Part shown: positions 10,445-58,961 of the stretch, piece by piece
Numbering within the stretch: position 1 is the stretch's first letter
Layout of the letters: the number at the start of each line of letters is the position of its first letter
Origin: a virus
Reading direction: 5' to 3' (one strand)
Virus record (IMG/VR): IMGVR_UViG_3300025888_000011
Span: 64,001-128,000 of that record
Length of the DNA stretch: 64,000 nucleotides
Position numbers and translations under genes: made by a program
The notes under the pieces: generated by a model
What the model was told of the DNA's origin: nothing
Databases searched by the model: none
What the model saw: the letters and a program-made list of their open reading frames with translations, nothing else

Positions 10445-10473
10445 TTGACAAATTAAGTTGAAAATGGTAATAT
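10445..10473 (+). promoter_or_regulatory. SigA-type promoter for RNA leader A and endonuclease
   Basis: TTGACA-17 nt-TAATAT with extended -10 TG. Confidence 0.75.
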
Positions 10474-10479
10474 TATATT

Positions 10480-10616
10480 AAGGATAGAATCATATAAAGG
10501 AGTCGACACTTTTATATGATTTGATAAGTGTGGGTTTTATCTACCGTCACTCTTCCTTGATTTTTACATATAATAATCACGGTGGATAAAATAATATAAA
10601 AGAGGTAGATAATAAA
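10480..10616 (+). ncRNA. Three-way-junction leader RNA, copy A (anti-SD in P3)
   Basis: P1 AAGGA/TCCTT, TAG, 13-bp P2, TGATA, P3 containing TTTTATCTACCGT complementary to 10579-10591 and to SD region 10604-10612. Confidence 0.7.
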
Positions 10617-12041
10617 ATGATAGACTTAGAACAAATAGTAAAAGTTAGATGGAATGGTTGTACAAGAAAATGGTATGAATCTAAAGGATATATTTATACA
10701 AAGCAAAATGAATTTTTTGATTGTAAGTTAGAGGATTTACAAAAGGGTTCAACAGTAAAAGTTTTAGTAATATGTGATTATTGTGGAGAAGAATTTCCAA
10801 AAGAATATAGAAATTACTTTAAAGAAAGAAAAATAGTTGAAAAAGATTGTTGTAAAAATAGAAAATGTATGGTTAAAAAATCTAAAGAAGTTAATTTAAA
10901 AACTATTGGTGTAGAAAATCCTATGCAATTAAAGGAAATAAGTGAAAAATCAGGTGTGAATCATAGAACTCCTTTTAATGAAGTAGTTTTATTATGTGAA
11001 GAAAAAGGACTTTTATTATTAAGTAAAGAGAGTGATTATAAAAACGATAGAACTCCAATTTTTATAATATGTAATAAACATGAATCAGAAGGAATACAAG
11101 AAACTAAATTTGCTAATATAAAAAAGAATAAAACTTGTTGTTTTTTCGGAGGGCATGATTTAATAGGATTAAGTAAAAGATTAAATGGGGAAGATGTTTA
11201 TAATGATTTCATAAAACATGGATTAACTCCATTATTTAAACCAAATGAATACAAGGATAATCAAACTATATTACCATATATATGCGATAAACATAAAGAT
11301 AAAGGAATACAATACAGAGCATATATGAATATAGACAATAATGAAGGATGTTCATATTGTGCAAAAGAGAGAATGAAAGAAAAAATGAGGTTTGATGAGA
11401 AATATGTTTTTGATAATTTGATTAATAAGGGATTAATACCGATTGAGGGCGAAAGATATATTAATAGAAATACTCCTATAAAATACAGATGCATTAAACA
11501 TCCAAACGTTATACAACACATTATATTTGGAGGATTCTTTAATACAGAATGTGCTTGTGATTATTGTAGAATGGAGAAAAGTTTATACAGTTTAAATAGA
11601 TATTTTAGAAGTTCTTTAAGTTTTTGGAGAAAAGAAGCTGAAAATAACTGTAACCATATGTGTATTTTAAGTGGAGTAAAACAATATGAAGTTCATCATT
11701 TATATTCCTATAATTCAATAATAAAAGATGTTGTTGATGAATTAAAGTTAGATTTCAAAAATGTTAAAGATTATTCTGAAATAGATTTATTAAATATAAG
11801 AAATAAAGTAATAGAAAAACATAAATTATCAAAAGGAATATGTTTAAATACTAAATTGCATATTATTTTTCATCAAGTTTTTGGAAAATTAAATAATACA
11901 AAAGAACAATTTGAGGAATTTAAAGAGAGCTATTATAATGGCGAGTTTGATAATGATTTAGAAGAAGAACTAAAATCTTACAATTCTATAAGAAGGTTAA
12001 ATGAAAACAGAATAAAGAGTGATTTTAATGAAGCTATGTAA
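10617..12041 (+). CDS. Free-standing HNH endonuclease with multiple Zn-binding repeats
   Basis: CDYC; repeated CxKH..CxxC units; C-terminal CILSG..EVHHLY..GICL..LHIIFHQVFG..N. Confidence 0.75.
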   Translation: MIDLEQIVKVRWNGCTRKWYESKGYIYTKQNEFFDCKLEDLQKGSTVKVLVICDYCGEEFPKEYRNYFKERKIVEKDCCKNRKCMVKKSKEVNLKTIGVENPMQLKEISEKSGVNHRTPFNEVVLLCEEKGLLLLSKESDYKNDRTPIFIICNKHESEGIQETKFANIKKNKTCCFFGGHDLIGLSKRLNGEDVYNDFIKHGLTPLFKPNEYKDNQTILPYICDKHKDKGIQYRAYMNIDNNEGCSYCAKERMKEKMRFDEKYVFDNLINKGLIPIEGERYINRNTPIKYRCIKHPNVIQHIIFGGFFNTECACDYCRMEKSLYSLNRYFRSSLSFWRKEAENNCNHMCILSGVKQYEVHHLYSYNSIIKDVVDELKLDFKNVKDYSEIDLLNIRNKVIEKHKLSKGICLNTKLHIIFHQVFGKLNNTKEQFEEFKESYYNGEFDNDLEEELKSYNSIRRLNENRIKSDFNEAM

Positions 12042-12088
12042 AATTGTAGCTTCATTTTTAATGCATAAAAATATAAGGAAGTGAAAAT

Positions 12089-13198
12089 ATGACAACAAGA
12101 GCAATAACAAGTAAAACTAAATCTAAATCCACAACTAAAAAAGAAGACAAGCCAATAGTAGAAATTACTTGTACTTGTTGTGGTGAAACAAAACATGATA
12201 CTGAATTTTATAGTAGTCAAAGTGAAATATTTAAAGCAAATAATAAGATGTGTATTTGCAAAAATTGTGTAATTGAGATATTTGATTTTTATAAGGCTAA
12301 ATATAAGGATGATGAACAAGCTTCTATATATCGAACTTGTGAATTATTAGATGTTTATTATACTGAAAATTTAATAGAATCTTCGAGAAAAGAGATGCTT
12401 AAAAGAGGTTCAGAAACTGGAAGTGTTATGAAATTCTACATGAAGAACGTGGGAATGAATCAATATAAAAATATGTCTTTTGAAGATAGAGAGATAACAC
12501 ATATACATGCTAAGGAAATTTTATATGAAAAAGAATTAGCTGAATTAACAGAAACTAAGAAAGAGAAAAAAGCTAAGGAAGATTGTATGAAGCTTATAGG
12601 ATATGATGCATTTTCTAGTGAACCTGTAAAAGAAAAGAAAGCATTATATTCAAAACTTGTAGGATTTTTAGATAGTTCTACACTTAAAGATAATTTTAAG
12701 ATTCCAATTGTTATCCAAATTGTGAAAATGTTTAATCAAGCAGACCAATTAGATAGGGCATTATCTGAACATTTAAGTAACCCTGATGTTATTTTAAAAT
12801 CGTCAGATGACATAAATAGGATAATAGGGGCTAAACAGAAAATAACTTCTGCTGTTTTAAGTATGGCTAAAGATAATGGAATAAGTGTAAATTACAGTAA
12901 CAATAAAAGTAAAGGAGCTGGAACACTTACTGGAATAATAAAAGAACTACAAGAGATTGGATTTGAAGATGCTGATGTTAATTTGTTTGATGTAGAAACA
13001 TTAGGTGGAATTAAGCATGTTGCTGATGAGAGCAATAAATCTATTGCGGAGCAATTGCAGTTTGATGAGAATGATTATACAGAAATGATAAGTGAACAGA
13101 AAATATTAATAGAAAAGTTTCAAAAATCATCAGATAAAATGGAAGAAGAAAATAGAAAAATAAAAACAATTTTAAACTTAAATGGTTTGAAATATTAA
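12089..13198 (+). CDS. Probable terminase small subunit / packaging-associated protein
   Basis: CTCC..FY.S..CKNC zinc motif; directly upstream of large terminase. Confidence 0.55.
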   Translation: MTTRAITSKTKSKSTTKKEDKPIVEITCTCCGETKHDTEFYSSQSEIFKANNKMCICKNCVIEIFDFYKAKYKDDEQASIYRTCELLDVYYTENLIESSRKEMLKRGSETGSVMKFYMKNVGMNQYKNMSFEDREITHIHAKEILYEKELAELTETKKEKKAKEDCMKLIGYDAFSSEPVKEKKALYSKLVGFLDSSTLKDNFKIPIVIQIVKMFNQADQLDRALSEHLSNPDVILKSSDDINRIIGAKQKITSAVLSMAKDNGISVNYSNNKSKGAGTLTGIIKELQEIGFEDADVNLFDVETLGGIKHVADESNKSIAEQLQFDENDYTEMISEQKILIEKFQKSSDKMEEENRKIKTILNLNGLKY

Positions 13199-13216
13199 GG
13201 AGGGAGTCTATAGAAA

Positions 13217-13756
13217 ATGGATTTCTCAATAAAACAAGGAAAAGAATATATGTCAGATACAAAAAAAGAAGGATATATGAGATTAGCACAAATAATACAA
13301 TGGGGAAGAAAGTATCCCACAAAATTCGTTGAAAGATTTTTTGGTGTATTTCTATTAGATTATCAAAAATATGTTTTTATGAATAGTTGGTCAACTCCAT
13401 TTTGTGTATGGTGTCAATGTCGTTCTAGTGGTAAATCAACATTAGGAAGTCCATTTATAATGGCTAAATCAATATTGATTCCTAATTTTCAAGGGTATTT
13501 ACTTGCAGGAGATGGCTCTCAGAGTAAGGAATTATTTCAGAAAATTGAGAAAATTGCTAATAGAGAAATTACCTCATTTACAGGGTTAACAGATGTATTT
13601 GGCAACGAATTAGTTAAGAGTGCCTCAAACACCAGTGGATTTACACATAATCCAAATTCCTTTGAATATAAGCTTTATAATGGTTCTAAGGTCAATACCT
13701 TAAATTCCGTTCCCGATAACCTTCGTTCGAAAAGAAGCAACTGTAACTTCTACGAT
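13217..13756 (+). CDS. terL: Terminase large subunit, exon 1
   Basis: Walker A CRSSGKST; exon ends at NFYD, the first half of Walker B. Confidence 0.9.
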
Positions 13757-14031
13757 AAACTTTTGTCGCCTTATATAGTAATATATAAGTGAAAATTATT
13801 CAATATCGGTGAATCCTAAGTCAGAAATGATATGGCGATACCGAGATAAGTTAAAGGTTTAAAAACTTTTGACCATCGTAACGCATAGAGATTGAAACTT
13901 TATATTAATATTATAAAGATATAAAATATCTCCAAGAGTGAATAACAACCTTGTAGGTTGAAAATGTATGCTGAACTTATAAGAAATTATAAGAAGTAGA
14001 GGATAAAAAGCCTTTACGATAACAAAAATTG
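13757..14031 (+). ncRNA. Group I intron (ORF-less, 275 nt) in terL
   Basis: 5' exon ends in U (P1 CGAT/GTCG with U.G), intron ends in G, P3 TTATTCA/TGAATAA, P7 GCATA/TATGC; removal restores NFYD|EAGF in frame. Confidence 0.9.
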
Positions 14032-15345
14032 GAAGCAGGTTTCATACCAGACGATTTATTTGTAACAACAGAGCCATTTACAACACAAAATAGTAACTTT
14101 GCTTTAGGTGGTGAATCACAAGATGTAACTTTAATACCTAAACAATTTCCTAATCAGTTAATTTACGCTTCATCAGCATCAAGTATTGACCAATATTTCT
14201 TTAAAAAATATAAGGAATTTTCTAAAAGAATGTTTTTAGGGGATAAAAAGTATTTTGTTGCAGATATAAAAGATGAGGTTGTAATGAGTGCAACATTTAA
14301 TGGAAAAGTGTATCCTGTATCTCTGTTAGTTCAAGAAACAATAGATAATGCTATGAGAGAAAACCCTGAAAAAGCAAATAGAGAATATAAAAATATATTT
14401 TCTAAAGAGGGTGGAGACAATCAAATTATTAAACGTGCAAGCATTATAAGAAATTCTAAAAATTACAAACCTATACTAACGAATGAAACTAATGAAATGA
14501 AGTTTATTTTAGCTCAAGACCCAGCAAGAAAATCTGATAATTCTATTACAACTATAGGATTGTTATATCACGATGAACATGTTGGTTATAAATTGAGATT
14601 ATGTAATTGTGTTAATTTTCTTGATAAAGGAAACAAAGTTAAACAACAAATGAGAATACCAGACCAAATCAAAGAAGTTAAAATTTTATTAAATAGTTAC
14701 AATGGAAAAGGCAAGGCACAGTGCGAAAACATACATAAGTTGTTGGTTGATGCAGGAGCTGGAGGTCAAGGACTGTCAATAGCAGATGAATTTATGGAAG
14801 ATTATAAAATTGACGGAAAAGACTATAGAGGATTGATAGATAAAGAAAACTGTTCAGAATATATTACTACATTTCCTAATGCTTTAGATAAACTTAAATT
14901 AATATCCCCACAAAAATATAAGAGAGATATGTTTGATGCTCTAGTAGAAATGATGAATATGGACTTAATTGAATTCCCTTCAAATTATGACGGTAGAGGA
15001 TATTTACGGTTTGAGGAGAGTATGACAGAATGTTATACGGATGAAGATAACAAATCGAAAAAGAAAACTGAAGCAAAGGAAAATATATATAAATTAAGTG
15101 ATGATGAAATTTTATCTTTAGTAAATTTAGATTTAGCAAAAGAAGAATTGGTCAATATTCATAGGATAGATTCATCAAATGAGAATTATAGATACGACTT
15201 ACCTGCCGACAAAAAAAGAAAGATGCATGACGATAAAGCGTATACGATTGCGATGCTCGCGTGGGAGTTAAAAAATATAAGAAGAGATGAATTTTATGAA
15301 GGTAAAGGAAAGCAAAAAGTAAACATCTTGGATTATTGCATGTAA
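14032..15345 (+). CDS. terL: Terminase large subunit, exon 2
   Basis: EAGF, YASSAS coupling motif, nuclease residues QDPA..D, VDAGAGG, HDD. Confidence 0.9.
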   Translation, partial: EAGFIPDDLFVTTEPFTTQNSNFALGGESQDVTLIPKQFPNQLIYASSASSIDQYFFKKYKEFSKRMFLGDKKYFVADIKDEVVMSATFNGKVYPVSLLVQETIDNAMRENPEKANREYKNIFSKEGGDNQIIKRASIIRNSKNYKPILTNETNEMKFILAQDPARKSDNSITTIGLLYHDEHVGYKLRLCNCVNFLDKGNKVKQQMRIPDQIKEVKILLNSYNGKGKAQCENIHKLLVDAGAGGQGLSIADEFMEDYKIDGKDYRGLIDKENCSEYITTFPNALDKLKLISPQKYKRDMFDALVEMMNMDLIEFPSNYDGRGYLRFEESMTECYTDEDNKSKKKTEAKENIYKLSDDEILSLVNLDLAKEELVNIHRIDSSNENYRYDLPADKKRKMHDDKAYTIAMLAWELKNIRRDEFYEGKGKQKVNILDYCM

Positions 15346-15406
15346 ATAATAATATAAAACTATAAACACACAATTTCCAAATCCTCAAAGAAAGGAGGTA
15401 TACAAA

Positions 15407-16981
15407 TTGACAACTAAAAAAATAACTAAAGAATCAATAGAATTATCTCAATCATTAAAAGAAACTCAAGAACTTGAAGAAGAATCTCATCGTGATTATG
15501 TATCATTTGCAAAAGATAGTTCTGTTTCAAATAAATCTTCTGCATATTCTTCTATTCAAAATAATAAAGCAAGGAAAACATCTAAAAGTAATATAAAGAA
15601 ATTTTTAGATAATCCTACTGACAATTATTTACAATTACAACAGTCTTCACAATATCTTAAAAATACAAATGGTATTTATAATAGATTAATATTCTATTTT
15701 TCATCATTATTAACATATGAACATTATTTATACCCTGTAGTGAGTTCAGATAAATTGGATAACGATAAAAAAGTAACAAAAGTTTATGAAGACGTTGCAA
15801 TAAATTTAGAAAAATATAATTTAAAGTTTAATTTACCTAAATTTACAGAATACATATTTACAGATGGAGAAGTATTTTTATATAAATTAGAAGATACAAA
15901 AGGAATTGTATTTAAGAAAATTCCAAATGAATATTGTAGAGTTAGTCAAATGGAAGATGGAGTTTTTAGATATGAAATAAATGTTACTAAATTTACAGAT
16001 ATTACAATACAAGAATTTCCACAAGAATTTCAAAATTTATATAACGTATTTCATGATAAAGAAAAATCAGATAAAAATAAGAAACAGAATAAGAATCAAA
16101 ACAATATTCTCAATAATATTAATAACAACTATATAAATTATGGATGGTTTCAAATTAGTAATAAAGGAGTTTGTTTTCCTACTCAATGGAATAATTTTCA
16201 TTCATTTCCTATGATGTCCTATTTATTACCAGATATTATGGATATAGATTCTATTAAGGATTTAAAGAAAGATTCTGATAGATTAGATAATACAAAATTT
16301 ATACATAGTAAAGTTGAAACTAATAAAGATACTGGATTACCTGTAATGGATTTAGATATTGTAAAAGCATATAACAAATCTATTCAAGATAAATTGCCTG
16401 ATGGAATGGTAGCTATTACTAATCCATTTGTAACAAACTCTATTCAACTAGCAGGAAGTCAAAGTAATATAAATAATATTGTTGAACAAGCTACAGATTA
16501 TATTTATTCAAGTGCAGGAGTAAGTGATTTACTCTTTTCTAATAAGAAATCATCTAGTGAAGCACTTAAACAATCTATTGCAGTTGATGTTCAAATACTA
16601 TTATCATTTATATTACCATTATATATTAATTATATAAACTTTGAATTAAGACAATATAATTCTGTTTATAGATTTGCTGTAAGAATATTAGAAACAACAT
16701 TATTATCTAGAAAAGATGATTTAACACTTAGTATGGCAAGTATGAATGTAGGCGGTTCTAGATTAAAGTTTATGGCTTTATGTGGACATACTCCTATTGA
16801 AGCGAGAACTCTTAGAAAACTAGAGAATGCTTTAGGTATGGATGAATTATTAACTCCTAAATTAAATGGTAATGTAATTAGTGGAAATGCAGATGGAACT
16901 TCAAATGTTGGAGGAGCACCTACAGCTGAATCAACAGGAACGGTAGGAGATAACACAGAAAAGGCTAACGAAAACAAGTAA
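15407..16981 (+). CDS. Portal protein
   Basis: 524 aa, directly after terL; SAGVS..LF pattern typical of SPbeta-like portals. Confidence 0.75.
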   Translation: MTTKKITKESIELSQSLKETQELEEESHRDYVSFAKDSSVSNKSSAYSSIQNNKARKTSKSNIKKFLDNPTDNYLQLQQSSQYLKNTNGIYNRLIFYFSSLLTYEHYLYPVVSSDKLDNDKKVTKVYEDVAINLEKYNLKFNLPKFTEYIFTDGEVFLYKLEDTKGIVFKKIPNEYCRVSQMEDGVFRYEINVTKFTDITIQEFPQEFQNLYNVFHDKEKSDKNKKQNKNQNNILNNINNNYINYGWFQISNKGVCFPTQWNNFHSFPMMSYLLPDIMDIDSIKDLKKDSDRLDNTKFIHSKVETNKDTGLPVMDLDIVKAYNKSIQDKLPDGMVAITNPFVTNSIQLAGSQSNINNIVEQATDYIYSSAGVSDLLFSNKKSSSEALKQSIAVDVQILLSFILPLYINYINFELRQYNSVYRFAVRILETTLLSRKDDLTLSMASMNVGGSRLKFMALCGHTPIEARTLRKLENALGMDELLTPKLNGNVISGNADGTSNVGGAPTAESTGTVGDNTEKANENK

Positions 16982-17011
16982 ATAATATAAAACATATGGA
17001 CGATAAAGGAT

Positions 17012-17206
17012 GTGATAAAAATGTTTATATATTGTTTTGAAAAGAAAGATAAGGAAGATTTGATTTCTAAGGGATATAGGTATTTAAAAGAAGAAACTGT
17101 TGGTCTTGGCGATAAAAAAGCCTATGTGTTTATAGATGATAATAAACTGAATTTTGAAGAATTAGATAATAAGAAGTTTATTAAAAGTAATAAGATGAAT
17201 TTCTAA
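17012..17206 (+). CDS. Small DUF5659-like protein
   Basis: FIYCF..LISKGYRYL..YVF pattern. Confidence 0.55.
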   Translation: MIKMFIYCFEKKDKEDLISKGYRYLKEETVGLGDKKAYVFIDDNKLNFEELDNKKFIKSNKMNF

Positions 17207-17226
17207 GTGAAGGGAGGTGAAAATTA

Positions 17227-18609: not shown

Positions 18610-18672
18610 TAACAATACAAGATATTAATATAAAAACAACAAAACAAATTAAAATTCGAGGAGGAATATATA

Positions 18673-19128
18673 ATGATAAGATTAGACAAAATTAAAGGTT
18701 CAGCTCACATAGCTTCATTTACATTCGCAACAACTTTAACAAACGGTGCAGTAGTTGCATTAGGTGCTTTAAACACAGACGGTGAAAGTTACATAGGTGG
18801 TGCTGTAGCTAACGTTGCTACAGATAAAATAGTTTTTCATGCTTCAGTAGAATTACAATATGCAGTTGATGCAATGGAAGAGGATTACACTCTTAAAATA
18901 GGTGGTAAAGGTAGAGGTTATATTCTTGAAAAAGGAGATATCGTAACAATTACAGATGACCAACTTACTGGAACTACAGTTGTAGGTGGATTTGTATTAC
19001 CAGTAGTAGGAACTAAACTTGCTTTTAGTGCATCAGCTAGAACAACTGAAAATTTAGCTTTCCAAGTAATAGAAAAAACAACTCTTGGTGGAGCAGTAGC
19101 AACAGCTTTAGAAGTAATATACGCTTAA
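18673..19128 (+). CDS. Capsid decoration / cement protein
   Basis: 151 aa Gly/Ala/Thr-rich, directly before the capsid gene, strong RBS GAGGAGG. Confidence 0.65.
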   Translation: MIRLDKIKGSAHIASFTFATTLTNGAVVALGALNTDGESYIGGAVANVATDKIVFHASVELQYAVDAMEEDYTLKIGGKGRGYILEKGDIVTITDDQLTGTTVVGGFVLPVVGTKLAFSASARTTENLAFQVIEKTTLGGAVATALEVIYA

Positions 19129-19184
19129 TTTATAAAAATAAAATAATATAAAAATTAATAATACAATTCGAGGAGGAATATATA

Positions 19185-26370: not shown

Positions 26371-26474
26371 AGAGGATAGATAAGGAGTAGCTCTTCATAT
26401 CGAAAACACATTTCTCCAAATGTGTTCCTCTGTTTTACAAATGGAGGAATAATTATTTGGAGGTAATTAATAAA
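26371..26474 (+). ncRNA. Three-way-junction leader RNA, copy B (anti-SD in P3)
   Basis: P1 AGAGGA/TCCTCT, P2 GATA-AGGA/TCTT-TATC, GAAAA, P3 CACATTT/AAATGTG with CTCC loop; complementary to TGGAGGAAT (26442) and ATTTGGAGG (26455). Confidence 0.7.
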
Positions 26475-27914
26475 ATGTCTAAAAAGAAAACAATAAAACA
26501 ATATAAAAATGAAGTATATAAATTGGTAAATACAGAGTATGATATATTAGGTGATTACAATGGAAATAAAATTAATATACAAATGAGACATAACAATGAA
26601 AGTTGTAGTAATTTTGAATTTCCAATGAGTCCTAATAGTTTTTTAAGAGGTCAGAGGTGTCCTAAGTGTAGTGGAAGAATGAAGAAAACAACTGAGCAAT
26701 TTAAGAAAGAAGTCTTTAAAATTGAAGGTGAAAAATATGATGTTTTAGGTGATTATATAAATAATCACACTAAAATATTAATGCGACATAATTGTGAAAA
26801 ATGTAATAATCATGAATATGATGTAACTCCAAAGGATTTTTTATTTGGGTATAGATGTCCTAAATGTTTTGGTACTCCTTTAAAAACACAAGAGGAATTT
26901 GAAACAGAAGTATATAGTTTGGTACAAGATAAATATACTGTTTTAGGAAAGTATAAAACTAATAAGACTAAAATATTAATGAAGCATAATTGTAAAGAGT
27001 GTGATAGTTTTGAATTTGAAATGTCTCCTAACTCTTTTTTAAGTAAAAATCAACGATGTCCAAAATGTGGTGGCACTATGTTAAAGACCGATGAGCAGTT
27101 TAAAAGTGAGGTTTTTAATCTCGTAAAAGTTGAGTATGTAGTATTAGAAAAATATATAGGTGCACATACTAAAATTTTATTTAAACACAATTCAGATAAA
27201 TGTAATAATCATGAATTTCCAATGACTCCTGATAGTTTCTTATCTGGAGAGCAAAGATGTCCAAAGTGTGGTGGAACAAAAAAGAAAACAGATAAAGAAT
27301 TCAAGCAACAAATATTTAGTTTAGTTGGTGATGAATACACAGTCTTAGAAGAATATATAAATGATAGTACTAAAATAATGTTTAGACATAATAATAAAGG
27401 ATGTGGTAATTATGAATATCCAGTGAAGCCTAACTCTTTCTTAAATGGACACAGATGTCCTAAATGTAATGAATCTAAAGGTGAACAAGCAATAAGACAT
27501 TACTGTAAAGATAATAATATAAATTTTACTCCACAATATATTTATGAAGACTTATTATCTGACTTAGGTAATCCATTAAAGTATGATTTTGCAATATTTA
27601 ATGATATAAATAAAATAGATTTAAAATATCTAATAGAATATGATGGAGAATTCCATTATAAAGTTATAAAATATAAAAATGAAACTATAGAATGGGCTGA
27701 AGCAAAATTTGCAAAACAAAAATATCATGACAAATTAAAAAATGAATATTGTATTGAAAATAATATAGAATTATTAAGAATACCATATTGGGAATTTGAT
27801 AATTTAGAAAGAATATTAACAGATTATTTAATACACGGAAAAGAAATAAGTGAATTGGGAATAAGAGAATACATTGATGATATTGAGATTAATAATATTG
27901 CATGTAATAGCTAA
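26475..27914 (+). CDS. Free-standing endonuclease: five ~66-aa Zn-finger repeats plus PD-(D/E)XK domain
   Basis: Five HN..C..P..FL..RCPKC repeats; SKGE, LKYDFAI..LIEYDGEFH; start taken at the ATG after SD GGAGG. Confidence 0.8.
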   Translation: MSKKKTIKQYKNEVYKLVNTEYDILGDYNGNKINIQMRHNNESCSNFEFPMSPNSFLRGQRCPKCSGRMKKTTEQFKKEVFKIEGEKYDVLGDYINNHTKILMRHNCEKCNNHEYDVTPKDFLFGYRCPKCFGTPLKTQEEFETEVYSLVQDKYTVLGKYKTNKTKILMKHNCKECDSFEFEMSPNSFLSKNQRCPKCGGTMLKTDEQFKSEVFNLVKVEYVVLEKYIGAHTKILFKHNSDKCNNHEFPMTPDSFLSGEQRCPKCGGTKKKTDKEFKQQIFSLVGDEYTVLEEYINDSTKIMFRHNNKGCGNYEYPVKPNSFLNGHRCPKCNESKGEQAIRHYCKDNNINFTPQYIYEDLLSDLGNPLKYDFAIFNDINKIDLKYLIEYDGEFHYKVIKYKNETIEWAEAKFAKQKYHDKLKNEYCIENNIELLRIPYWEFDNLERILTDYLIHGKEISELGIREYIDDIEINNIACNS

Positions 27915-48233: not shown

Positions 48234-50006
48234 ATGGCAAACGAATGGATATTTACAAGTTGTGGAAACTCAGGAAGATATGGAGTAAGTCAAGCACAAA
48301 TAGATTCATCCTATATTGGGACTAATCTTACAGGAAAAGTTACTAGTCAAAGTGGTATACAAATATGGACTCCTCCATACAATGGACTTTATACAATAGA
48401 AGTATGGGGTGCTAGGTCAGGAACACAACCAGAATATGGTGCAGGTGGATATGGTTTAGGTAGGAAACTAAAAGGGAATTTTATTTTAAAAAACAGTAAG
48501 TCTTTAAAGATTTTAATAGGACAAGTTGGTGGTGATGGTGGAAGTGATTATAGTGCTGGTGGAGGTGGTGGAACTTTCGTAGCTATAATAGACAACACCC
48601 CTCTATGTATTGGTGGAGGAGGAGGAGGTGTAACTTCAGATAGTGCAGGTTCTAATGGTCAAACAACTACAACAACTCCTGCAAACCCAAATGTTGGTCA
48701 AGGTTATACAAACTCTCCCTCTGGTGGTGGAGGTGGTGGATTTTATTCTGATGGTTCGGCATCTTTTACTGATGGCGGAGGAAAAGCATTCATCAATGGT
48801 GGTTATGGTGGAGTTAATGGAGCTTCTTGTGGCTACGGTGGTTTTGGTGGTGGAGGCGGTTCTGTTGATGAAGTTGGTTGTGGTGGTGGTGGATATACTG
48901 GAGGTCGTCCTACAGACTCGCCCCCATCTGAGGGAGGAGGTTCATTTATTGCGACTGATTCTCAAAATGCTGTATGGGATTTAGGTTTAAATTCTGATAA
49001 CGGAAGAGTAATAATAACTCTCTTAAAAGTATTTGAATATAATCTTATACGTTCAGAAGGAAATATATATACTTTTAAAGATAGTGAATGGATAAATTTA
49101 AATATTTCAAGTCCTACTCAAAGTGATTTTGAAAATCAATCAATATCATCATTATCGGAAGTATTTAGTCCAATCACAAAAGCTTTTATGCCAATGGATT
49201 TCGATAAAAACCTTGAAGATGGATTCTTATGGAGAAAAAAGATTGTTCAAAGTAAATATAATGGAATTAAAGTATTAAATTGTGGGGAAGTTGTTGTAGC
49301 TGATTTTGGAACTTACAAGGCTTGGTCTGATGGTACTTTTGCGACACACGCAGGAGAATATTTAAATCCAACAAAATCAAATTATAAATATATTGGAGCT
49401 ATAGGAAGTGGTGTTTATAGAATTCAACCTAGCGAAATAGTTTCACCAATAGATGTATATTGTGATATGAATACTTCAAATGATGAAGGTGGATGGATGC
49501 TAATATTAAATACAGGCGTAAAAGCAACTTTAACTACAATGACTACCTCATTTGGGACATCTCCTATATTGACAACACAAACAACTATGTCAAAATTATC
49601 TGATGCAAATATTAATTTATTGAGAGGAAGCATTTTAGATAAATCAATAATAAGATTGGATAGACCTAATAATCCTGCGTTAAAAAGTTATCCTATTTAT
49701 TTCAGACAAGGTAATCCTTTTACAAGCTATGCAGGGCTTGAAGGAGCACAAGATGGAGCAAAAACAATATATTATTATTATACTACATATAATGATTCTA
49801 AAAATGGAACAAACAGATATGGAGCAAATTCAACAAATTACGGGTCTGCTTTGAGTACGTGGGGAGGAACTTTCCCTGCTACTATGCCTAGTGCTTATTA
49901 TATAATTATGGATTACAGGGCAGAAGGACTTATTTCAAATGATACATATGCATATGAAGGAAGCAGGTCTGAACGATGTGCTTTATTATGGGTAAAAAGG
50001 ATTTAG
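48234..50006 (+). CDS. Cassette 2 gene B: glycine-rich (ALK/LTK-like) domain plus fibrinogen-like C-domain
   Basis: GIQIWTPP..YTIEVWGA..ILIGQ.G..GGGGGTFV; GSGVYRI..VYCDM..GGWML. Confidence 0.7.
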   Translation: MANEWIFTSCGNSGRYGVSQAQIDSSYIGTNLTGKVTSQSGIQIWTPPYNGLYTIEVWGARSGTQPEYGAGGYGLGRKLKGNFILKNSKSLKILIGQVGGDGGSDYSAGGGGGTFVAIIDNTPLCIGGGGGGVTSDSAGSNGQTTTTTPANPNVGQGYTNSPSGGGGGGFYSDGSASFTDGGGKAFINGGYGGVNGASCGYGGFGGGGGSVDEVGCGGGGYTGGRPTDSPPSEGGGSFIATDSQNAVWDLGLNSDNGRVIITLLKVFEYNLIRSEGNIYTFKDSEWINLNISSPTQSDFENQSISSLSEVFSPITKAFMPMDFDKNLEDGFLWRKKIVQSKYNGIKVLNCGEVVVADFGTYKAWSDGTFATHAGEYLNPTKSNYKYIGAIGSGVYRIQPSEIVSPIDVYCDMNTSNDEGGWMLILNTGVKATLTTMTTSFGTSPILTTQTTMSKLSDANINLLRGSILDKSIIRLDRPNNPALKSYPIYFRQGNPFTSYAGLEGAQDGAKTIYYYYTTYNDSKNGTNRYGANSTNYGSALSTWGGTFPATMPSAYYIIMDYRAEGLISNDTYAYEGSRSERCALLWVKRI

Positions 50007-50021
50007 AAAGTTGGTGATTAA

Positions 50022-51626: not shown

Positions 51627-51694
51627 ATTTACTAAATAATAAACATAATAACTAGAACACTCCAAAACTCAATGCAATGAGGATGTGATAAAAT

Positions 51695-54600
51695 GTGCAA
51701 AGTAATAAGGATTTAAATTCTGTTATTATAGTTAATTCAGAATTAAAAAAGAATAAAGCATATGGAAGGATACATATAAATTCTGCTTTAAATATGCCGA
51801 CTAAAATAACAGTATCAAATAATATGGATTTAAATTGTAGAGTTGTTATAAAACCAAATAACAAAATGTTTGGTAAGGTTGATATAGTTGAAAAAAATGT
51901 TATTGATAATTATTTATTGCCAATAAAAGACGCTTTTGTTCGGAGTGAACTTCCTGTATTCAATTATGGAGAACAACAAGATTTATTAGTTGGTAAAAAC
52001 AAACACAATAACGAAACATATCGTTCTCTTCTTGAATTTAACTTAAACTCGTTATCAAGAAATCTTATATTTATCTCAGCAAAATTAACACTAACATGTT
52101 TAGACTATGATGTATTATCATCTGATTTACAGTTATTTGAAGCAAATGAAAGTTGGTTTGAAACAGGTGTGACATATAATTCTGCACCTACTAGTAAAGA
52201 TTTGATTGCTAGTTTATCTGATTGTGGAAATAAAGGAGCACTTGAATTTGATTTATCAAATGTAATACAAGATTGGTATAAAGGTGATAAGATAAAAAAT
52301 GGTTTCATTTTAAAAGTAGCAGATGAAACTTTAGATGGATTTAAACGATTTGGTTCAAAAGAAAGCCAATTTAAACCAAAATTAGTATTACAATATTATG
52401 ACCCTATTCCAAAATCATATGGAACTTTAATAGTAAAATCAAAAATAGTTGTTAGAAAAAATGACTATATGGATTTACCCTCAAAAGTAATTGTTCCTGT
52501 GCATGATGGTGGTGGAGATTTTCCTTCACAAATTAAAGTTAGAAATGGGAATTATATAAATTCTTTAATAACAGTAAGTAGAGATTTTATTACTTCAAAA
52601 ATTACTGTAACTGGTAAATATGATATATTAACACAAGTGTCTATAAAAAATGATGGATGGAATCAACTACCCTGTAAAATAGATGTATCTTCTCCTTTTA
52701 TAGCAAGTAAGATAAAAATTACAAATTCAATTGATTTAAATACTGAGATTATTGTTAAAAGATATGACAATTCAATTATAAATTCTAAACTTATAGTACA
52801 TAGACCATTTTTAAATTCTAAAATAGTCGTTGGTGGATTAAGTCATCTCCCAATATTGCTTAAAATAAAAAGGGCAGAAGGAACAGATGTACCATCACAG
52901 ATTATTGTACAGAAATATCAGAATAATGATAAAAATTCTAAACTTGTTGTTACATATTTTAAGGATATGCCTTCTAAGATTAGGATAACTGGTAGAAATG
53001 ATTTTGATTCACAAATTACAATACGACAAAATGTTAATAGAGATATAAAGACTAAGATAATTAGTACGCATTTCAATGATTTAGTTACTAAGTTAAGAGT
53101 AACAGGAATATCACAAGAAGACAAAGATTCACAAATAATTGTAAAAAGAGAAGATTATAATGAATTAAATTCTCAGCTAATAATAAGCTATTTTAATGAT
53201 ATAAATACACTTATTAAAGTTACTACTGCCTCAATTGAATCACAAGTAATTGTTAGAAATTATAATGATAATGATTTTGATTCAAGAATTATTATAACTC
53301 CTACAAATAATATACTTTCAAAAGTAAATATAGCTTGGACAAAAGACATAATAACAAGAATGATAATAAAAATCCCTTATGCTTTTGATTTTCCTTCAAA
53401 GGTAGAGGTAAAAGACCCTGCTGTAATGTACTCGAAAGTTATTATAAGACATAATGAAACGTTTGATAAAGACTCTATATTAAATGTAAGCAAGGCATTC
53501 GTTGAATCTAGTTTATTAGTAAATATACCATTTATTAATAGTAAAGTTATAATTAGTCAACCTAGCATTGAAACTTCTATAACAGTACATAGACCATTTA
53601 TTGAATCAAAAGTTATCATTTCCAAGTCTTTTATCGAGTCAAAAATAAACGTATCTAAAAATAACTTACTATGTTCTATTACTATATTTAAGCCATTTAT
53701 TGACTCAAAAATAATAATTAATAGAGCTTTCATTGATACAATATTAAAAGTAAGAGAACATACTGATTCAGACATTGAAAGCAAATTGGTTGTCATAGAA
53801 CAAGGAATAAAAGATATACAAACTAAGATAAATATTTCTGTTCAAAACAAAATGTTTGGCAGAGTTGAAATAGAACGACCTCCAAATATCAAAGTAGAAA
53901 AATTTGCTATACAGGATGCTTATGTTAAGAAAAGTGTACCAATGTTTAATTATGGTGATATGCAAGATATGTATATCGGAAGTAATAATTATGGAAATGA
54001 AATTTATAGGTCATTATTATCTTTCACATTAAAAGATATACCAAAAACTGCTTATTTTACTAAGTGTAAATTAGTTTTAACTGCTTGTAGTTTAGAGTAT
54101 TATCCACATGATATTGAATTACATGAAACTAGTAAAGCATGGTATGAATATGGGGTAACTTATGCAGGTCAACCAAATTCGTTGGGAATTTTAGCTAAAG
54201 TTGAATCTTCAAATACTCTTGTTAGAAAATTAGAGTTTGATTTATTATCTTACGCTGATGGTTGGTATAATGGTATATCAATTAAAAATGGCTTTATATT
54301 GAAAAGTTCTGAAGAAAATACATCTGTCATTAAAAGATTTTTCACAAGAGAAAGTCTATATCCACCTATCTTAGAAATTGAATACTTTGATACGGCAGTT
54401 ATTAATAGAGTAAATGCTAATATTAACTCTCTTGTTACTGTTAGACAAAGCTCATATAAAGATTTGAACAGTAAAATAACCATACCTGTTTATGATTTCT
54501 ATGAGGACTTAAGTTCTAAACTCACAATTAGAAATCGTGGTAATATGGCTAGTGATATTGATAGTACTATTAGAATTTCTAAAGGAGATATGAAATCAAG

Positions 54601-55459
54601 TATTAAGGTTAGAAATTATGACGAAAATTGGATAAATTCAAAATTACTTGTTAGAAATTATGCTGACGATGATGGATTATTATCTTCCGTAAATATAAGT
54701 CAACCAAAGTTAGATTGTAAAATTATTGTTTATAGAAACGATAGTTTTGAAATTGACACTAAATTAATAACGAGAAGAATAGACAATATTGATTTGGATT
54801 CTGTAATTAATGTTAAAAAATATTCTGTTAAGGACATTAATACAAAAATTGGGATTAATAAGGATTGGTTGGACTCTAAAATTGTAATAAGAGAACATTC
54901 AAGTATTGATTGTAGAATTGAAATTAATAAAAAATCTAATGTTGATTTACAAAGTAAAATTGTAGTTAATTATACTAATGATATTAATTCAAAATTATTA
55001 GTTACTCAAATTAGTGATATCAAAAATAAAATAATAATACAAAGAAATGAATATAAAGATATTGACTCGAAGATTAAAATTACCAATGTTCATGATATTT
55101 CTACGAGGATAGATGTATCATATTCTAAAGATATTAATTCCAAAATTAAAGTTAGATTAATAGGTGATATTGATTTACCTGTAAAAATTACAGTAATTAA
55201 TATTTCAGATTTAGATACTAAAATTCAAGTAGTAAAAGGTGATATAAACTCAAGATTAGTAGTTAGAATTAATGAAACTATTGATTTAGATAGCAATATA
55301 ATAGTATTACCTACGAGTAATATTCTTTCTAGGGTTGATATTGTCCAAGTCAAAGATATTAATTCAAGCATAACAGTAAGAAGTTCTTTTTATAGCGATA
55401 TGTTATTTCAAATTACTATAAAAAATTATGGAGTAATAGGATATGCATACATTATGTAG
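51695..55459 (+). CDS. Large fibre protein with two DNRLRE/CBM96-like domains and many short beta repeats
   Basis: DAFVRS..FNYG..YRSLLEF..SAKL..W.E.GVTY occurs twice; (D)I.SKI.V repeats of ~10-14 aa. Confidence 0.7.
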   Translation: MQSNKDLNSVIIVNSELKKNKAYGRIHINSALNMPTKITVSNNMDLNCRVVIKPNNKMFGKVDIVEKNVIDNYLLPIKDAFVRSELPVFNYGEQQDLLVGKNKHNNETYRSLLEFNLNSLSRNLIFISAKLTLTCLDYDVLSSDLQLFEANESWFETGVTYNSAPTSKDLIASLSDCGNKGALEFDLSNVIQDWYKGDKIKNGFILKVADETLDGFKRFGSKESQFKPKLVLQYYDPIPKSYGTLIVKSKIVVRKNDYMDLPSKVIVPVHDGGGDFPSQIKVRNGNYINSLITVSRDFITSKITVTGKYDILTQVSIKNDGWNQLPCKIDVSSPFIASKIKITNSIDLNTEIIVKRYDNSIINSKLIVHRPFLNSKIVVGGLSHLPILLKIKRAEGTDVPSQIIVQKYQNNDKNSKLVVTYFKDMPSKIRITGRNDFDSQITIRQNVNRDIKTKIISTHFNDLVTKLRVTGISQEDKDSQIIVKREDYNELNSQLIISYFNDINTLIKVTTASIESQVIVRNYNDNDFDSRIIITPTNNILSKVNIAWTKDIITRMIIKIPYAFDFPSKVEVKDPAVMYSKVIIRHNETFDKDSILNVSKAFVESSLLVNIPFINSKVIISQPSIETSITVHRPFIESKVIISKSFIESKINVSKNNLLCSITIFKPFIDSKIIINRAFIDTILKVREHTDSDIESKLVVIEQGIKDIQTKINISVQNKMFGRVEIERPPNIKVEKFAIQDAYVKKSVPMFNYGDMQDMYIGSNNYGNEIYRSLLSFTLKDIPKTAYFTKCKLVLTACSLEYYPHDIELHETSKAWYEYGVTYAGQPNSLGILAKVESSNTLVRKLEFDLLSYADGWYNGISIKNGFILKSSEENTSVIKRFFTRESLYPPILEIEYFDTAVINRVNANINSLVTVRQSSYKDLNSKITIPVYDFYEDLSSKLTIRNRGNMASDIDSTIRISKGDMKSSIKVRNYDENWINSKLLVRNYADDDGLLSSVNISQPKLDCKIIVYRNDSFEIDTKLITRRIDNIDLDSVINVKKYSVKDINTKIGINKDWLDSKIVIREHSSIDCRIEINKKSNVDLQSKIVVNYTNDINSKLLVTQISDIKNKIIIQRNEYKDIDSKIKITNVHDISTRIDVSYSKDINSKIKVRLIGDIDLPVKITVINISDLDTKIQVVKGDINSRLVVRINETIDLDSNIIVLPTSNILSRVDIVQVKDINSSITVRSSFYSDMLFQITIKNYGVIGYAYIM

Positions 55460-55501
55460 GGCTTAATAAAAATATAAAAAACAAAGGAGAATGATGAAAT
55501 T

Positions 55502-56515
55502 ATGGCAAATGTAAAATTTTATAAAGGATTAAAAACGGCTCTACCTACAACAAATTGCACAGACAGTAGTAGTCTATATTTTTTAGAGGACTCTCAAGAA
55601 ATATATAAGAGTGTTTTAGGACAATTACCAATCAAAATGAGTGATTATATAATCTGTACAATCTTACCAGTCACAGGTCTACAAGGTAAATTATATTTAG
55701 AAACAACAACGTGGACTCTAAATGTATGGAATGGAACTATTTATAAATTAGTAGGAGGGAATCCATTAAATATTACTGCTAGTTCAGTTGATACATTTAC
55801 AAATAAGACAATAGATGCAACAACAAATACAATTAGTAATATAGATTTAGTCAACTTTAAAACAGGAGTAATTAGTACAGATAATACATTAGTTGGGAAC
55901 TCAGACAGCACGTTCAGTACAACTAAAGCAGTAAAAGGATATACAGATTCTACAATAAGCACTAACTTAACATCATTAAAGGGAGGAGTTGCTACAGACG
56001 GTGATACCCTTGCCAAGTTAAGAGGATTAATTGGTGGAATAGAAACTTTATTAAATTCTAATGATGTAAGTTTAGATTCATTACAAGAAATCGTAACATA
56101 CATAAAAGATAATAAAACAATTCTCGATGGAGTTACAACAACAAAAGTTAATGTTTCTGACATTATTGATGATTTAATTCATACAGATATAAATAAACCT
56201 TTAAGTGCAAATCAAGGTAAAAATTTAAAAGGATTACTTGATACTTTATCTACTCTTGTAGGAACAAAAGCTGATAAAGTAATAGGAGCAGTTGCACAAG
56301 ATATTGCTATTTTAGATGTAAATGGAAATTTAGTCGATAGTGGTAAGAAATTATCTGAGTATTCAACTTTAACTTATACAGATGCACAAGATGTAATTAC
56401 CTTAAATAGTAGTAAAAGTTATTCAAATGCTCAAGATGTGATTAATTTGGCATCAGCCAATAACTACACAGATTCAGCAATAATTTCAGCTATAAGTTGG
56501 ATAGACTTAGTTTAA
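55502..56515 (+). CDS. Fibre-like protein, paralogue of 37135..37956
   Basis: VKFYKG..LP; QGKLYLETTTWTLNVWNGT; LDSLQEI; PLSANQGK. Confidence 0.6.
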   Translation: MANVKFYKGLKTALPTTNCTDSSSLYFLEDSQEIYKSVLGQLPIKMSDYIICTILPVTGLQGKLYLETTTWTLNVWNGTIYKLVGGNPLNITASSVDTFTNKTIDATTNTISNIDLVNFKTGVISTDNTLVGNSDSTFSTTKAVKGYTDSTISTNLTSLKGGVATDGDTLAKLRGLIGGIETLLNSNDVSLDSLQEIVTYIKDNKTILDGVTTTKVNVSDIIDDLIHTDINKPLSANQGKNLKGLLDTLSTLVGTKADKVIGAVAQDIAILDVNGNLVDSGKKLSEYSTLTYTDAQDVITLNSSKSYSNAQDVINLASANNYTDSAIISAISWIDLV

Positions 56516-56597
56516 TAAAATAATATAAAATAAAGGTGGGTAACACAATCTCGCCTTTTTCTTTAATTTAAAAAGGGAAGGTGGGATTAAATGGATT

Positions 56598-57104
56598 ATG
56601 AGTGAAAAAATTAAGTTTATAAAGACAAGTCAGAGCAATTTACCTGCACAAGGGTTACTGGGTGGTATATATTTTTGTATTGATACGAGGAATCTGTATA
56701 TGACTAATAGCGATTCAACTTTATCTAAGTATTCAGATATAATTGAATTAGATACAGAAGATGAAAGATTAGGATTATTTGCACCTCTTACAGATAAATT
56801 CTATTATGTAAAATCATCAAAACGTATGTATTTTTATAAAGATTCCTTTGAGTTATTAGGTGGTTACTTGTTAGAGTCTAATTTTATAGCAACATTGGAT
56901 AATACAACAAATATAATTCATGGATTAAATTATAATCCTCTATATGATATTTTACAAGCATTTGATATGTATGTAGGAGGATTGTTGACAATAACAGAAA
57001 ACTATACTGAAAATATTAATAATAATAGTATTGACTTAGTTGAAATGAGTTTAAAAGTTGGTGAGAAAATTAAATTTAATTTATTTAAAAACATGAAAGT
57101 ATAA
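56598..57104 (+). CDS. Fibre-like protein, paralogue of the 37988 N-terminus
   Basis: IKF..SNLP..GIYFCID; GLFAPLTDKFYY. Confidence 0.55.
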   Translation: MSEKIKFIKTSQSNLPAQGLLGGIYFCIDTRNLYMTNSDSTLSKYSDIIELDTEDERLGLFAPLTDKFYYVKSSKRMYFYKDSFELLGGYLLESNFIATLDNTTNIIHGLNYNPLYDILQAFDMYVGGLLTITENYTENINNNSIDLVEMSLKVGEKIKFNLFKNMKV

Positions 57105-57402
57105 ATAATTTTAAGTGGAATTAATAACTCCACTTACTTTTTAGAGGAAATAACTTTAATTTGTTTCTTGTAAAAAGTAATATAATAATATCTAAAATAC
57201 TTACTAAATTTAATTAAATACTTTATCTTATAGTCTATGAATGGCTTAACTTGGTAGCAAATATTCACTCTCAGCAATCTCACAACTTAAATCATACTAG
57301 TATACATAATTACAAATTTGAAGCGTTTTAAAAGCAATCTGACAAGAATGTATATAAAACTAAATTAACTAAATTTAATTAACTATAATAATATAAAAAC
57401 TA

Positions 57403-57431
57403 TTGACAGTAAACCTTAAAAAGATTATAAT
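57403..57431 (+). promoter_or_regulatory. SigA consensus promoter upstream of XRE regulator
   Basis: TTGACA-17 nt-TATAAT. Confidence 0.8.
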
Positions 57432-57544
57432 CTAAATATAGGGAAATATTCTTATTAAATGCATGTGTTCATACTCTTATAATATTAATATCTTTAACAA
57501 TGTGATAGAATAATAATAGATACATATTTTTAAAACAAATTTTA

Positions 57545-58429
57545 TTGAATCTATATAATAAAAATATGAATAGAAATTATAGGAGATATTATATGACTAA
57601 TAAAGATAGAAACCCAATTAAGATTGTTGGAAAAGCTAATCCTATTAAAAAAGTTACTCAAAGAACATTGTTTGATATTGAGCCAAAGGAGATTAAAGTA
57701 GCTAAGGATAATGTTAATAATAATGAAGTGTCACATGTGATACCAAAACGTAAGAGAATTAAACTTATTAACTCAACACGTAGAACGCCAAATCGTAAAA
57801 AACTTAAAATTGATATGATAATAGATGATATTGAAGATAATAAAATGCAGAAGTCATTAGCTAAAAATGGATTGCGACAAGATAGTATTTTTGATGGAGT
57901 GACTACATTTTCAGAAAAAATAAAAGAAACAAATGAGCTTAGTAAATATAAAATGCCTCAAGAAGACAAAGATAAATTTATTAAATTAAGTGATGAAACT
58001 AAATTAGGAGTAATGGAAGTATTGTTAGATACCGTTGAGAATAACAAAAAGATAAAATCTCAAATGGATAAAATGATGAAAGATATGCAAAGTTTTAGAA
58101 GTCAAATAGCAACTTTAACAATTAGTAATAATCAGCAAATTAAAGAGAAGATAGTTGTAGATAAAAACAAAAAATGGACAATTGATGATAGTGCTTTTAT
58201 TGAGTTGTATACTATTTCATCAAAATTAAAAGATATATTAACAGAGGAAAGAATGAGTCAAACTGAGATATGTGAACATACTGGAATTAATAAAAGTACA
58301 ATGAGTAATATATTAAGTTATCCTGAAAAAATAACTTTATTGAACGCTTATAAGATTTCTAAAGTATTAGGTAAATCTATTGAAGAAATATTTGACTTTG
58401 ATATGCAAATGGAAGATTATGTAGAATGA
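57545..58429 (+). CDS. Protein with coiled coil and C-terminal XRE/Cro-C1 HTH
   Basis: LKDIL..MSQTEICEHTGINKSTMSNI..AYKISKVLGKSIEEIF; likely start ATG 57593. Confidence 0.8.
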   Translation: MNLYNKNMNRNYRRYYMTNKDRNPIKIVGKANPIKKVTQRTLFDIEPKEIKVAKDNVNNNEVSHVIPKRKRIKLINSTRRTPNRKKLKIDMIIDDIEDNKMQKSLAKNGLRQDSIFDGVTTFSEKIKETNELSKYKMPQEDKDKFIKLSDETKLGVMEVLLDTVENNKKIKSQMDKMMKDMQSFRSQIATLTISNNQQIKEKIVVDKNKKWTIDDSAFIELYTISSKLKDILTEERMSQTEICEHTGINKSTMSNILSYPEKITLLNAYKISKVLGKSIEEIFDFDMQMEDYVE

Positions 58430-58579
58430 TAAAATAAGAAATAAAAACTAAATAAATTTAGAATTATAGAAATAAATCTAATATATGAAATATTTATATT
58501 GTATATTGGAAAACCCTATGGTATACTTTTTTTATTGGGAAGTAATTCCTAAATAAGAATACATAGGGGGATTTAATAT

Positions 58580-58786
58580 ATGATGTTTGCTAAAGAAAAT
58601 AAAAATGGTGAAATAGAATTAAATGGGACAGAGAGTGAGATTGGGGAACTTTGTACGTTTAGAGATTTATTAGAATATGCTTCGGAAGGCAATAATTTAA
58701 TCAATGGATTTATTATGTGTAGAGATGGAATTATAAACGTTAATAATGAAGAAATTGAATTAGTTGTTAAATCCATTCATGTATAG
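58580..58786 (+). CDS. Hypothetical protein
   Basis: RBS AGGGGG. Confidence 0.5.
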   Translation: MMFAKENKNGEIELNGTESEIGELCTFRDLLEYASEGNNLINGFIMCRDGIINVNNEEIELVVKSIHV

Positions 58787-58836
58787 TACCAAAATTAAAT
58801 TGATTATAACAAATAGTAATATTTGATTATATATAA

Positions 58837-58961
58837 AAAAGATAGAATAATTATAAGGGTTGCAAACTGAATAATTAATTGACAAGTAGTGGTTTATCAT
58901 TCCCACTACTTCTTTTGTTGCGTCAAAAAATGGTATAAAAGAAAGAAAGGAATGATATAAA
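58837..58961 (+). ncRNA. Three-way-junction leader RNA, copy C (anti-SD in P3)
   Basis: P1 AAAAGA/TCTTTT, TAG, P2 TAATTAT/ATAATTA, TGACA, P3 AGTAGTGG/CCACTACT; TATCATTCC complementary to GGAATGATA (58949-58957). Confidence 0.7.

Follow-up and report, generated by a model that had tools for sequence, protein, structure and literature searches.

Among the selfish genes of large phages, those for homing endonucleases are the commonest, and to our knowledge hardly anything is known, outside T4, of what restrains their expression. Could the restraint lie in the messages themselves? The question is raised by three genes, here called A, B and C, in the viral record IMGVR_UViG_3300025888_000011. The stretch analyzed (the window) is 64,000 nucleotides (nt) long and comprises bases 64001-128000 of a viral contig of 141,152 bp with 27% G+C, which IMG/VR lists as linear and about 74% complete; the only sequencing run that contains the whole contig is a peat metagenome, which may be the source of this DNA, and no RNA run is listed for the phage. 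Each of the three genes belongs to a homing-endonuclease family and is preceded by a leader (copies A, B and C) with one common layout. The three leaders represent a phage RNA family that is widespread and has so far not been catalogued. We propose, with a probability of about 0.6, that this 5' leader limits translation of the endonuclease and moves together with its gene.

Three leaders share one three-way junction

A preliminary description of this DNA, made from its letters and a list of its open reading frames (ORFs), had proposed the layout P1-TAG-P2-GA(T/A/C)AA-P3-P1' for three sites, with stem sequences that differ while pairing is kept. We found the layout at all three. Each leader is made up of a stem P1, the bases UAG, a hairpin P2, the bases GAnA, a second hairpin P3 and the strand P1'. 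The 5' strand of P1 is purine-rich and ends in GA, and P1' is the pyrimidine strand that closes the stem. Between P2 and P3, copy A reads GAUAA, copy B GAAAA and copy C GACAA. Because pairing is possible between the G of UAG and the pyrimidine preceding GAnA, and the final A of GAnAA pairs with the U after P3, the junction can be written as P1, UA, (G..P2..Y), GAnA, (A..P3..U), P1'. The elements are listed here with the bases that face the ribosome-binding site (RBS) and with their scores under R3, our final covariance model, which was built from 20 copies.

10480..10558, + strand: copy A junction; P1 10480-84/10554-58; UAG 10485-87; P2 10488-10521 with palindrome GUCGAC at 10502-07; junction UGAUA 10522-26; P3 10527-51 with anti-RBS loop 10537-45; R3 46.2 bits, E 4.6e-8
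26371..26431, + strand: copy B junction; P1 26371-76/26426-31; UAG 26377-79; P2 26379-26401 with loop UAGCU and palindrome AGCU at 26389-92; GAAA 26402-05; P3 26406-25 with anti-RBS stretch 26413-21; R3 61.6 bits, E 1e-11
58837..58916, + strand: copy C junction; P1 58837-42/58911-16; UAG 58843-45; P2 58846-80 with palindrome UUGCAA at 58860-65; GACA 58881-84; P3 58885-58910 with anti-RBS loop 58895-903; R3 49.4 bits, E 8e-9

The motif GG(A)GTnG that had been noted in or near the P2 loop is present, but it in fact flanks a self-complementary hexamer whose letters vary (GUCGAC in A, AGCU in B and UUGCAA in C).

Since MAFFT was unable to align copy B to copies A and C, we bootstrapped the search from a covariance model of the single copy C. 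Run over both strands of the window (128 kb), this model recovered copy A at E 5e-7 and copy B as its fourth-ranked match, and it found nothing comparable elsewhere in the genome. When copies A, B and C were aligned with the structure as guide, 97% of the cells were paired and both sides had changed in 16 of the 23 pairs, a level reached by none of 500 shuffles; slid controls paired at 44-56%. Over the whole 141-kb genome, R3 returned the three window copies and no others, at 46-62 bits; the match ranked after them scored 21.6 bits.

The leaders belong to a family found in phages of different hosts

We found some 30 further distinct copies in IMG/VR, in metagenomes and in three cultured phages. 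R2, a covariance model built from copies A, B and C, added two copies from IMG/VR contigs obtained via relatives of protein A; both stand directly past an extended -10 promoter and ahead of a nuclease-like ORF. A search of IMG/VR with a copy B-type pattern gave 25 true copies among 32 loci; of 120 matches to the same pattern in bacterial genomes, almost all were chance and only a handful were real. This excess in viral contigs over bacterial genomes marks the element as a phage feature. A metagenome scan yielded true copies in about 20 of 120 loci and added about 15 more distinct ones.

The covariance model of three copies, which the preliminary description had put forward as a check on the motif, thus led to more copies, and their stems covary strongly. 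Across 26 model matches, 93.6% of the cells were paired and 116 cells had changed on both sides, compared with 33 in shuffles; slid controls again paired at 44-56%. All three stems covary, most strongly P1 and P3, while the junction bases are nearly invariant (GAUAG, YGAnAAG), and the frequent G.U pairs fit the + strand only. At least 17 copies outside the set from which R3 was built were recovered by that model, at E 1e-4 to 3e-8.

Starting from a single copy, a blastn search reached three cultured phages, each with one full copy before a nuclease gene; these copies lie at MW478292.1:1592-1656, ON548418.1:18481-18541 and MT104122.1:3188-3252.

Clostridium perfringens phage vB_CpeS-1181 (MW478292.1:839-3793): leader and 259-aa gene between two ORFs annotated as large terminase
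Bacillus anthracis phage Thrax2: one full leader before a nuclease gene
Sporosarcina phage Lietuvens: one full leader before a nuclease gene

The terminase gene of vB_CpeS-1181 is apparently interrupted by the nuclease module. A megablast search of cultured phages with leader A and the start of its gene gave no match. Members of the family were found with Firmicutes-type and with Bacteroidetes-type expression signals.

The P3 loop matches the initiation region of its own gene and a second site upstream

What might such a leader do to the gene behind it? The P3 hairpin of each window copy had been described as complementary to the Shine-Dalgarno (SD) region of its own gene and to a second site further upstream. 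Both complementarities are there, at the following positions.

10579..10591, + strand: copy A upstream ("decoy") site; 13 bp with the P3 loop, one of them G.U; duplex -16.9 kcal/mol
10604..10612, + strand: copy A ribosome site, GGUAGAUAA; 9 bp with 10537-45; duplex -12.2 kcal/mol
26442..26450, + strand: copy B upstream site, UGGAGGAAU; 8-9 bp with the P3 loop; complementary to P1' as well
26455..26463, + strand: copy B ribosome site, AUUUGGAGG; 8-9 bp with 26413-21, including a G.U
58929..58935, + strand: copy C upstream site, AAUGGUA; 7 bp, one of them G.U; duplex -4.7 kcal/mol
58949..58957, + strand: copy C ribosome site, GGAAUGAUA; 9 bp with 58895-903; duplex -11.8 kcal/mol

The ribosome site of copy A ends 4 nt ahead of the ATG at 10617. 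The pyrimidine-rich P1' strand is also complementary to purine-rich sites downstream, namely the decoy in copy B and the stretch between decoy and ribosome site in copy C.

In every copy examined, the P3 loop is complementary to the ribosome site and to a second site 13-25 nt further upstream, often over a longer run. A start codon was called in 29 copies, and for each of these we compared the match of the P3 loop to its own leader with its matches to the leaders of all other copies. The longest run against the initiation region averaged 6.66 nt for the loop's own gene and 5.13 nt for other genes (p 2e-7), and that against the upstream site 7.07 and 4.97 nt (p 2e-9); the duplex energies were -8.6 (cognate) and -5.4 kcal/mol (noncognate) at the initiation region (p 4e-10) and -9.2 and -4.7 kcal/mol at the upstream site (p 2e-11), all of these p values being generous because many copies are interrelated and their independence is overstated. 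The complementarity noted in the three window copies is in this way kept in their homologues. Bacteroidetes-type copies have no SD sequence (L026), and there the loop matches the bases that immediately precede the AUG as well as a repeat of these bases further upstream. Selection therefore acts on complementarity to the initiation region and not merely on an anti-SD sequence.

The leader opens the message and could throttle its translation

Copies A and B begin 6 to 7 nt past good sigma-A promoters, and we found no good promoter for copy C, in agreement with the preliminary description.

10445..10473, + strand: copy A promoter, TTGACA, 17 nt, TG-n-TAATAT; predicted start at the first bases of P1
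26336..26364, + strand: copy B promoter, a perfect TTGACA-17-TATAAT (12/12)

Across the family, about 27 of 32 copies are immediately preceded by a -10 box or by a TAnnTTTG box of the Bacteroidetes type, so the leader RNA forms the 5' end of the message. The distance from the end of P1' to the start codon is 30-59 nt, with a median of 45. A search for internal late promoters gave a single consensus match, at 10563-92 in copy A, and none on the + strand of copies B or C; the count for copy A does not exceed chance (3 found against 2.7 expected).

Taken together, position and complementarity suggest how the leader may work. The transcript would start at P1 or a few bases from it, and the junction would fold during transcription. 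The P3 hairpin would then present a loop that matches both the initiation region of its gene and a look-alike site upstream, usually the stronger of the two. With the P3 loop (in some copies P1') on the ribosome site, translation of the homing endonuclease would be low; with the loop on the upstream site, the ribosome site would be free. Leader and endonuclease gene would travel as one mobile module. Judged from the sequences, translational throttling of the nuclease is the likeliest function, with odds somewhat better than even, and a switch in which the upstream site serves as the decoy of an ON state is plausible.

Several points speak against this reading. Copy C has a weaker decoy than A or B (7 bp, -4.7 kcal/mol), one of the two sites is poorly matched in a few members of the family, and the statistics for complementarity are, as said, generous. 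A few copies stand before genes for proteins other than nucleases (DUF1376, a capsid-like protein and a small membrane-like protein). Moreover, a plain anti-RBS hairpin would need neither a junction with near-invariant bases nor a palindromic P2 loop, both of which therefore point to something more than masking.

The full leader has a competing fold of lower energy

For the core alone, the minimum free energy (MFE) fold is the junction, at -21.6 kcal/mol in copy A, -18.5 in B and -16.1 in C. For the full leader, a nested alternative fold is 7-10 kcal/mol lower, in a calculation that covers nested pairs only. In the alternative fold of copy A, the pairing of P3 loop and upstream site is extended and the SD is left open. 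In those of copies B and C, the SD is paired with the P3 region; in the full-leader MFE structure over nested pairs, the SD is paired in B and C and not in A. P1' is engaged as well, pairing in copy B with the decoy (hairpin 26423-51) and in copy C with the purine-rich stretch between decoy and SD. As modeled, the design of the leader is bistable, in keeping with the two states that had been claimed for it.

A competing fold of this size also resembles the expression platforms of riboswitches, and the junction might accordingly be a sensor: either a riboswitch-like aptamer or a binding site for a host or phage protein, whose occupation would steady P1 and so decide whether P3 and P1' are available for masking the ribosome site. 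Nearly invariant junction bases within covarying stems would suit such a pocket, and a spread from Firmicutes-type to Bacteroidetes-type phages would suit a universal ligand or a conserved factor. On the other hand, the controlled genes have no metabolic theme, the riboswitches in Rfam are dissimilar, and a ligand pocket leaves the palindromic P2 loop unexplained. Regulation by the nuclease itself is also unlikely because the downstream proteins are unrelated. We consider a sensor quite unlikely.

The P2 loop carries a palindrome that differs from copy to copy

The self-complementary hexamer of the P2 loop is GUCGAC in copy A and UUGCAA in copy C, and copy B has only the 4 nt AGCU. Elsewhere in the family we found UAAUUA, UCAUGA, UAGCUA, UCGCGA, UUAUAA and GAAUUC. 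A palindrome of at least 6 nt was present in 79% of 19 distinct P2 loops, compared with 16% after shuffling (maximum 42% in 2000 shuffles), and one of at least 4 nt in all 19. P3 loops had no 6-nt palindrome. Since such a hexamer cannot pair inside its own loop, it points to kissing or extended dimers. In energy calculations, P2 gains 9-14.5 kcal/mol by pairing with an identical P2 and nothing when copies A, B and C are paired with one another, which suggests RNA dimers that would be specific to each copy.

The nearest likeness is to the HIV-1 dimerization initiation site (DIS) and other kissing-loop dimerization hairpins, where a 6-nt self-complementary loop also varies in its letters and keeps its self-complementarity (PMC7357161). 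The DIS sits in a packaged RNA genome, whereas here the loop, a putative dimerization site, sits in the mRNA leader of a bacterial virus.

The family offers a rare natural example of a bacterial-virus mRNA leader that probably dimerizes. What could dimers be for? Tentatively, we suggest a self-counting switch, an idea that we hold to be doubtful: the P2 loops of identical leaders, and of no others, would kiss and dimerize as the message accumulates, after which the P3 loops would fill both sites or the P2 duplex would be cut. If this were true, each selfish nuclease gene would cap its own expression solely through contact between RNAs, and each would have an address code of its own.

The palindrome bears on two further explanations, the first of which places the partner in trans. 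Most family members have a U-rich tract after P1' (10559-10570, 26432-26438 and 58917-58920 in the window); the first 12 nt past P1' are 51% U and the next 28 nt 26%, with a run of at least 4 U in 59% of the copies. Partial termination at this tract may release the leader as a small RNA. If most transcripts ended there, the resulting RNA, 60-85 nt long, might act in trans as does c4 of phage P1: its P2 loop would find the same loop on the mRNA, its P3 would cover the RBS of the mRNA, and the P3 of the mRNA would occupy the upstream site. The U tract, the two targets of each P3 loop, which suit a complex of two RNAs, and P2 palindromes that favor homodimers only would all fit. But canonical intrinsic terminators are not built as a branched junction with a modest U tract, a terminator scan found none at P1' in copies A or C, and the U run is missing in about 40% of the copies.

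The c4 RNA of phages P1 and P7 was reportedly shown by Citron and Schuster in 1990 to be cut from the leader of the operon that it represses, where its target sites lie upstream and at the RBS. It is the nearest precedent for a leader RNA with such a pair of targets and resembles the present family in being a leader-encoded RNA with loops complementary to two sets of sites, including a downstream RBS; it differs in acting in trans, after processing, on icd/ant of an immunity operon, whereas the family is known here from sequence. No Rfam family, and hence not c4 (Rfam C4, RF01695), matched the copies tested, with E up to 10 allowed for the three sites of the window and E up to 2 for 8 other copy-bearing loci. 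Release as a trans-acting RNA is in our view unlikely.

In the second explanation the element governs the fate of the mRNA, as a 5' protection from RNases that depend on the 5' end, as an unrecognized self-cleaving RNA or through a P2-P2 duplex cut by RNase III. A fold that starts at the first bases of the transcript would be well placed for protection, and the upstream site of Firmicutes-type copies is purine-rich and SD-like. STAB-SDs are 5' mRNA stabilizers with an SD-like sequence. An extended P2 homoduplex is, by the energies given above, more stable than two hairpins. Protection would nevertheless leave it unexplained that P3 tracks its own initiation region, including in copies without an SD, and for self-cleavage the hammerhead core is absent and the ribozymes in Rfam did not match. 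We rate control of mRNA fate as very unlikely.

The hammerhead ribozyme was rejected as a candidate on several counts. Its core, CUGANGA...GAAA...UH, is missing, the junction strands here being UA(G), GAnA and 0-2 nt; copy A has GAU and copy C has GAC where GAA is invariant; and no Rfam hammerhead model matched.

The family is absent from Rfam and is probably a new form of anti-RBS control

To place the leaders among known RNAs, we scanned the window with Rfam 15 at gathering score. The leaders were unmatched, and a tRNA gene at 1182-1254 (68.7 bits) was the single match across the window. At the three sites, a search at E up to 10 gave chance matches only, the best at E 0.03-1, to unrelated microRNA, small nucleolar RNA and small RNA families; in 8 other copy-bearing loci, no family was found at E up to 2. 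The novelty of the motif with respect to Rfam, which the preliminary description had left subject to a scan, is upheld by these searches. A literature search found no description of this leader family.

The int-alpA motif (RF02996; gathering score 35.8 bits) is, like the leader family, a small candidate structured RNA of phages and mobile elements whose function is unknown. Its model found no match in the whole genome at E up to 10 and none in copy-bearing loci elsewhere, at gathering score in 13 and at E up to 2 in 8, and we therefore did not assign the leaders to it.

The closest functional parallel comes from T-even phages. RBS-sequestering structures control I-TevI, I-TevII, I-TevIII and segB of T-even phages and mobE of Aeh1 (PMC2988022). 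They are, like the leaders described here, cis structures before phage homing endonuclease genes that can pair the SD (PMC2988022), and the presumed purpose is common to both: a harmful nuclease is kept low or late. The T-even structures are simple, gene-specific hairpins that share no fold, and their block is lifted by a late promoter that lies within the hairpin itself (PMC2988022). By contrast, the leader family has one conserved junction fold that starts at the promoter, anti-RBS bases in a hairpin loop, a second target upstream and a palindromic loop, and it precedes nucleases of unrelated classes in phages of different host phyla. The family would, in this comparison, be a new and widespread form of anti-RBS control.

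The downstream genes are mostly endonucleases of unrelated classes

Which genes does the leader accompany? Those in the window are the following.

10617..12041, + strand: gene A, 474 aa; homing-endonuclease-like; phrog_12131, phrog_681
26475..27914, + strand: gene B, 479 aa; repeated CapR/DUF4379 zinc ribbons and a C-terminal nuclease module; phrog_559, E 3e-104
58962..60569, + strand: gene C, 535 aa; DUF4379 zinc fingers

The three are mosaics, all in PHROG homing-endonuclease families. A and C have an N-terminal module in common, B and C the C-terminal nuclease and A and B the zinc-ribbon middle. The products had been described as one HNH and two PD-(D/E)XK nucleases. We could not confirm this: for a firm catalytic fold, Pfam gave only zinc-finger domains and a subthreshold DUF2726, and a PDB sequence search gave nothing, while PHROGs assigned all three to homing-endonuclease families with shared modules.

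Elsewhere in the family, the downstream genes encode HNH_3 with NUMOD4, HNH, HNH_2, GIY-YIG (plus NUMOD3), DUF4379/CapR zinc-ribbon and DUF7487 proteins. The portability that had been claimed for the leader is borne out by its position before unrelated classes of endonuclease in phages of different hosts.

If the leader does limit translation, one portable RNA module, common to HNH, GIY-YIG and zinc-ribbon nucleases and to Firmicutes-type and Bacteroidetes-type phages, would explain how endonuclease genes enter new genomes without killing them. It would also be a useful design for synthetic translational control, a compact scaffold in which the anti-RBS loop can evidently be adapted to any ribosome site. 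Because three cultured phages carry it, the family is directly testable.

Decayed, divergent and displaced leaders

The genome holds two related structures outside the window. At L006:8694-8845 (genome position about 48294-48445), an extended -10 promoter is followed by the remnant of a leader. At L006:8722-8790 this decayed copy retains only AAGGAUA and a hairpin resembling the P2 of copy A; the GAnA junction, P3 and P1' are all missing, and a gene starts at L006:8844. At L008:3213-3290 (genome position 131013-131090), a fourth leader forms a three-way junction with other junction bases (G, UUAA), a P1 of 9 bp, a P2 of 10 bp with the loop GUCGCU and a P3 of 4 bp. It was not scored by R3. Its P3 region is complementary over 10 bp to the SD of a gene starting at L008:3353 and over 6 bp to an upstream site.

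In five phages reached via relatives of protein A, the weak R2 matches in Lactococcus AM1, Bacillus Goe17, Perkons, SPbetaL7 and Geobacillus E3 were, by eye, chance matches inside genes, and R3 found nothing in SPbetaL7 or in Staphylococcus phage qdsa001. The latter has a P2-like hairpin only (KY779848.1, about 115400-115435; L305:1495-1530), with the loop AAGUAAUGAG, in which the palindrome is spoiled. This hairpin adjoins fragments of endonuclease and DNA-repair genes and may be a leader relic in Silviavirus phages.

Within the window, two weak partial matches to the RNA models lack P2. Both are hairpins followed by U runs, one (12001-12062) straddling the stop codon of gene A and the other (57095-57142) beginning at the end of an ORF that stops at 57104, and they are probably terminators. 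Finally, in the IMG/VR contig 3300035502_000619, the leader (L042:600-708) follows the apparent 3' end of a tRNA gene instead of a promoter; the same contig encodes a transfer-messenger RNA (91.9 bits) at L042:13571-13923.

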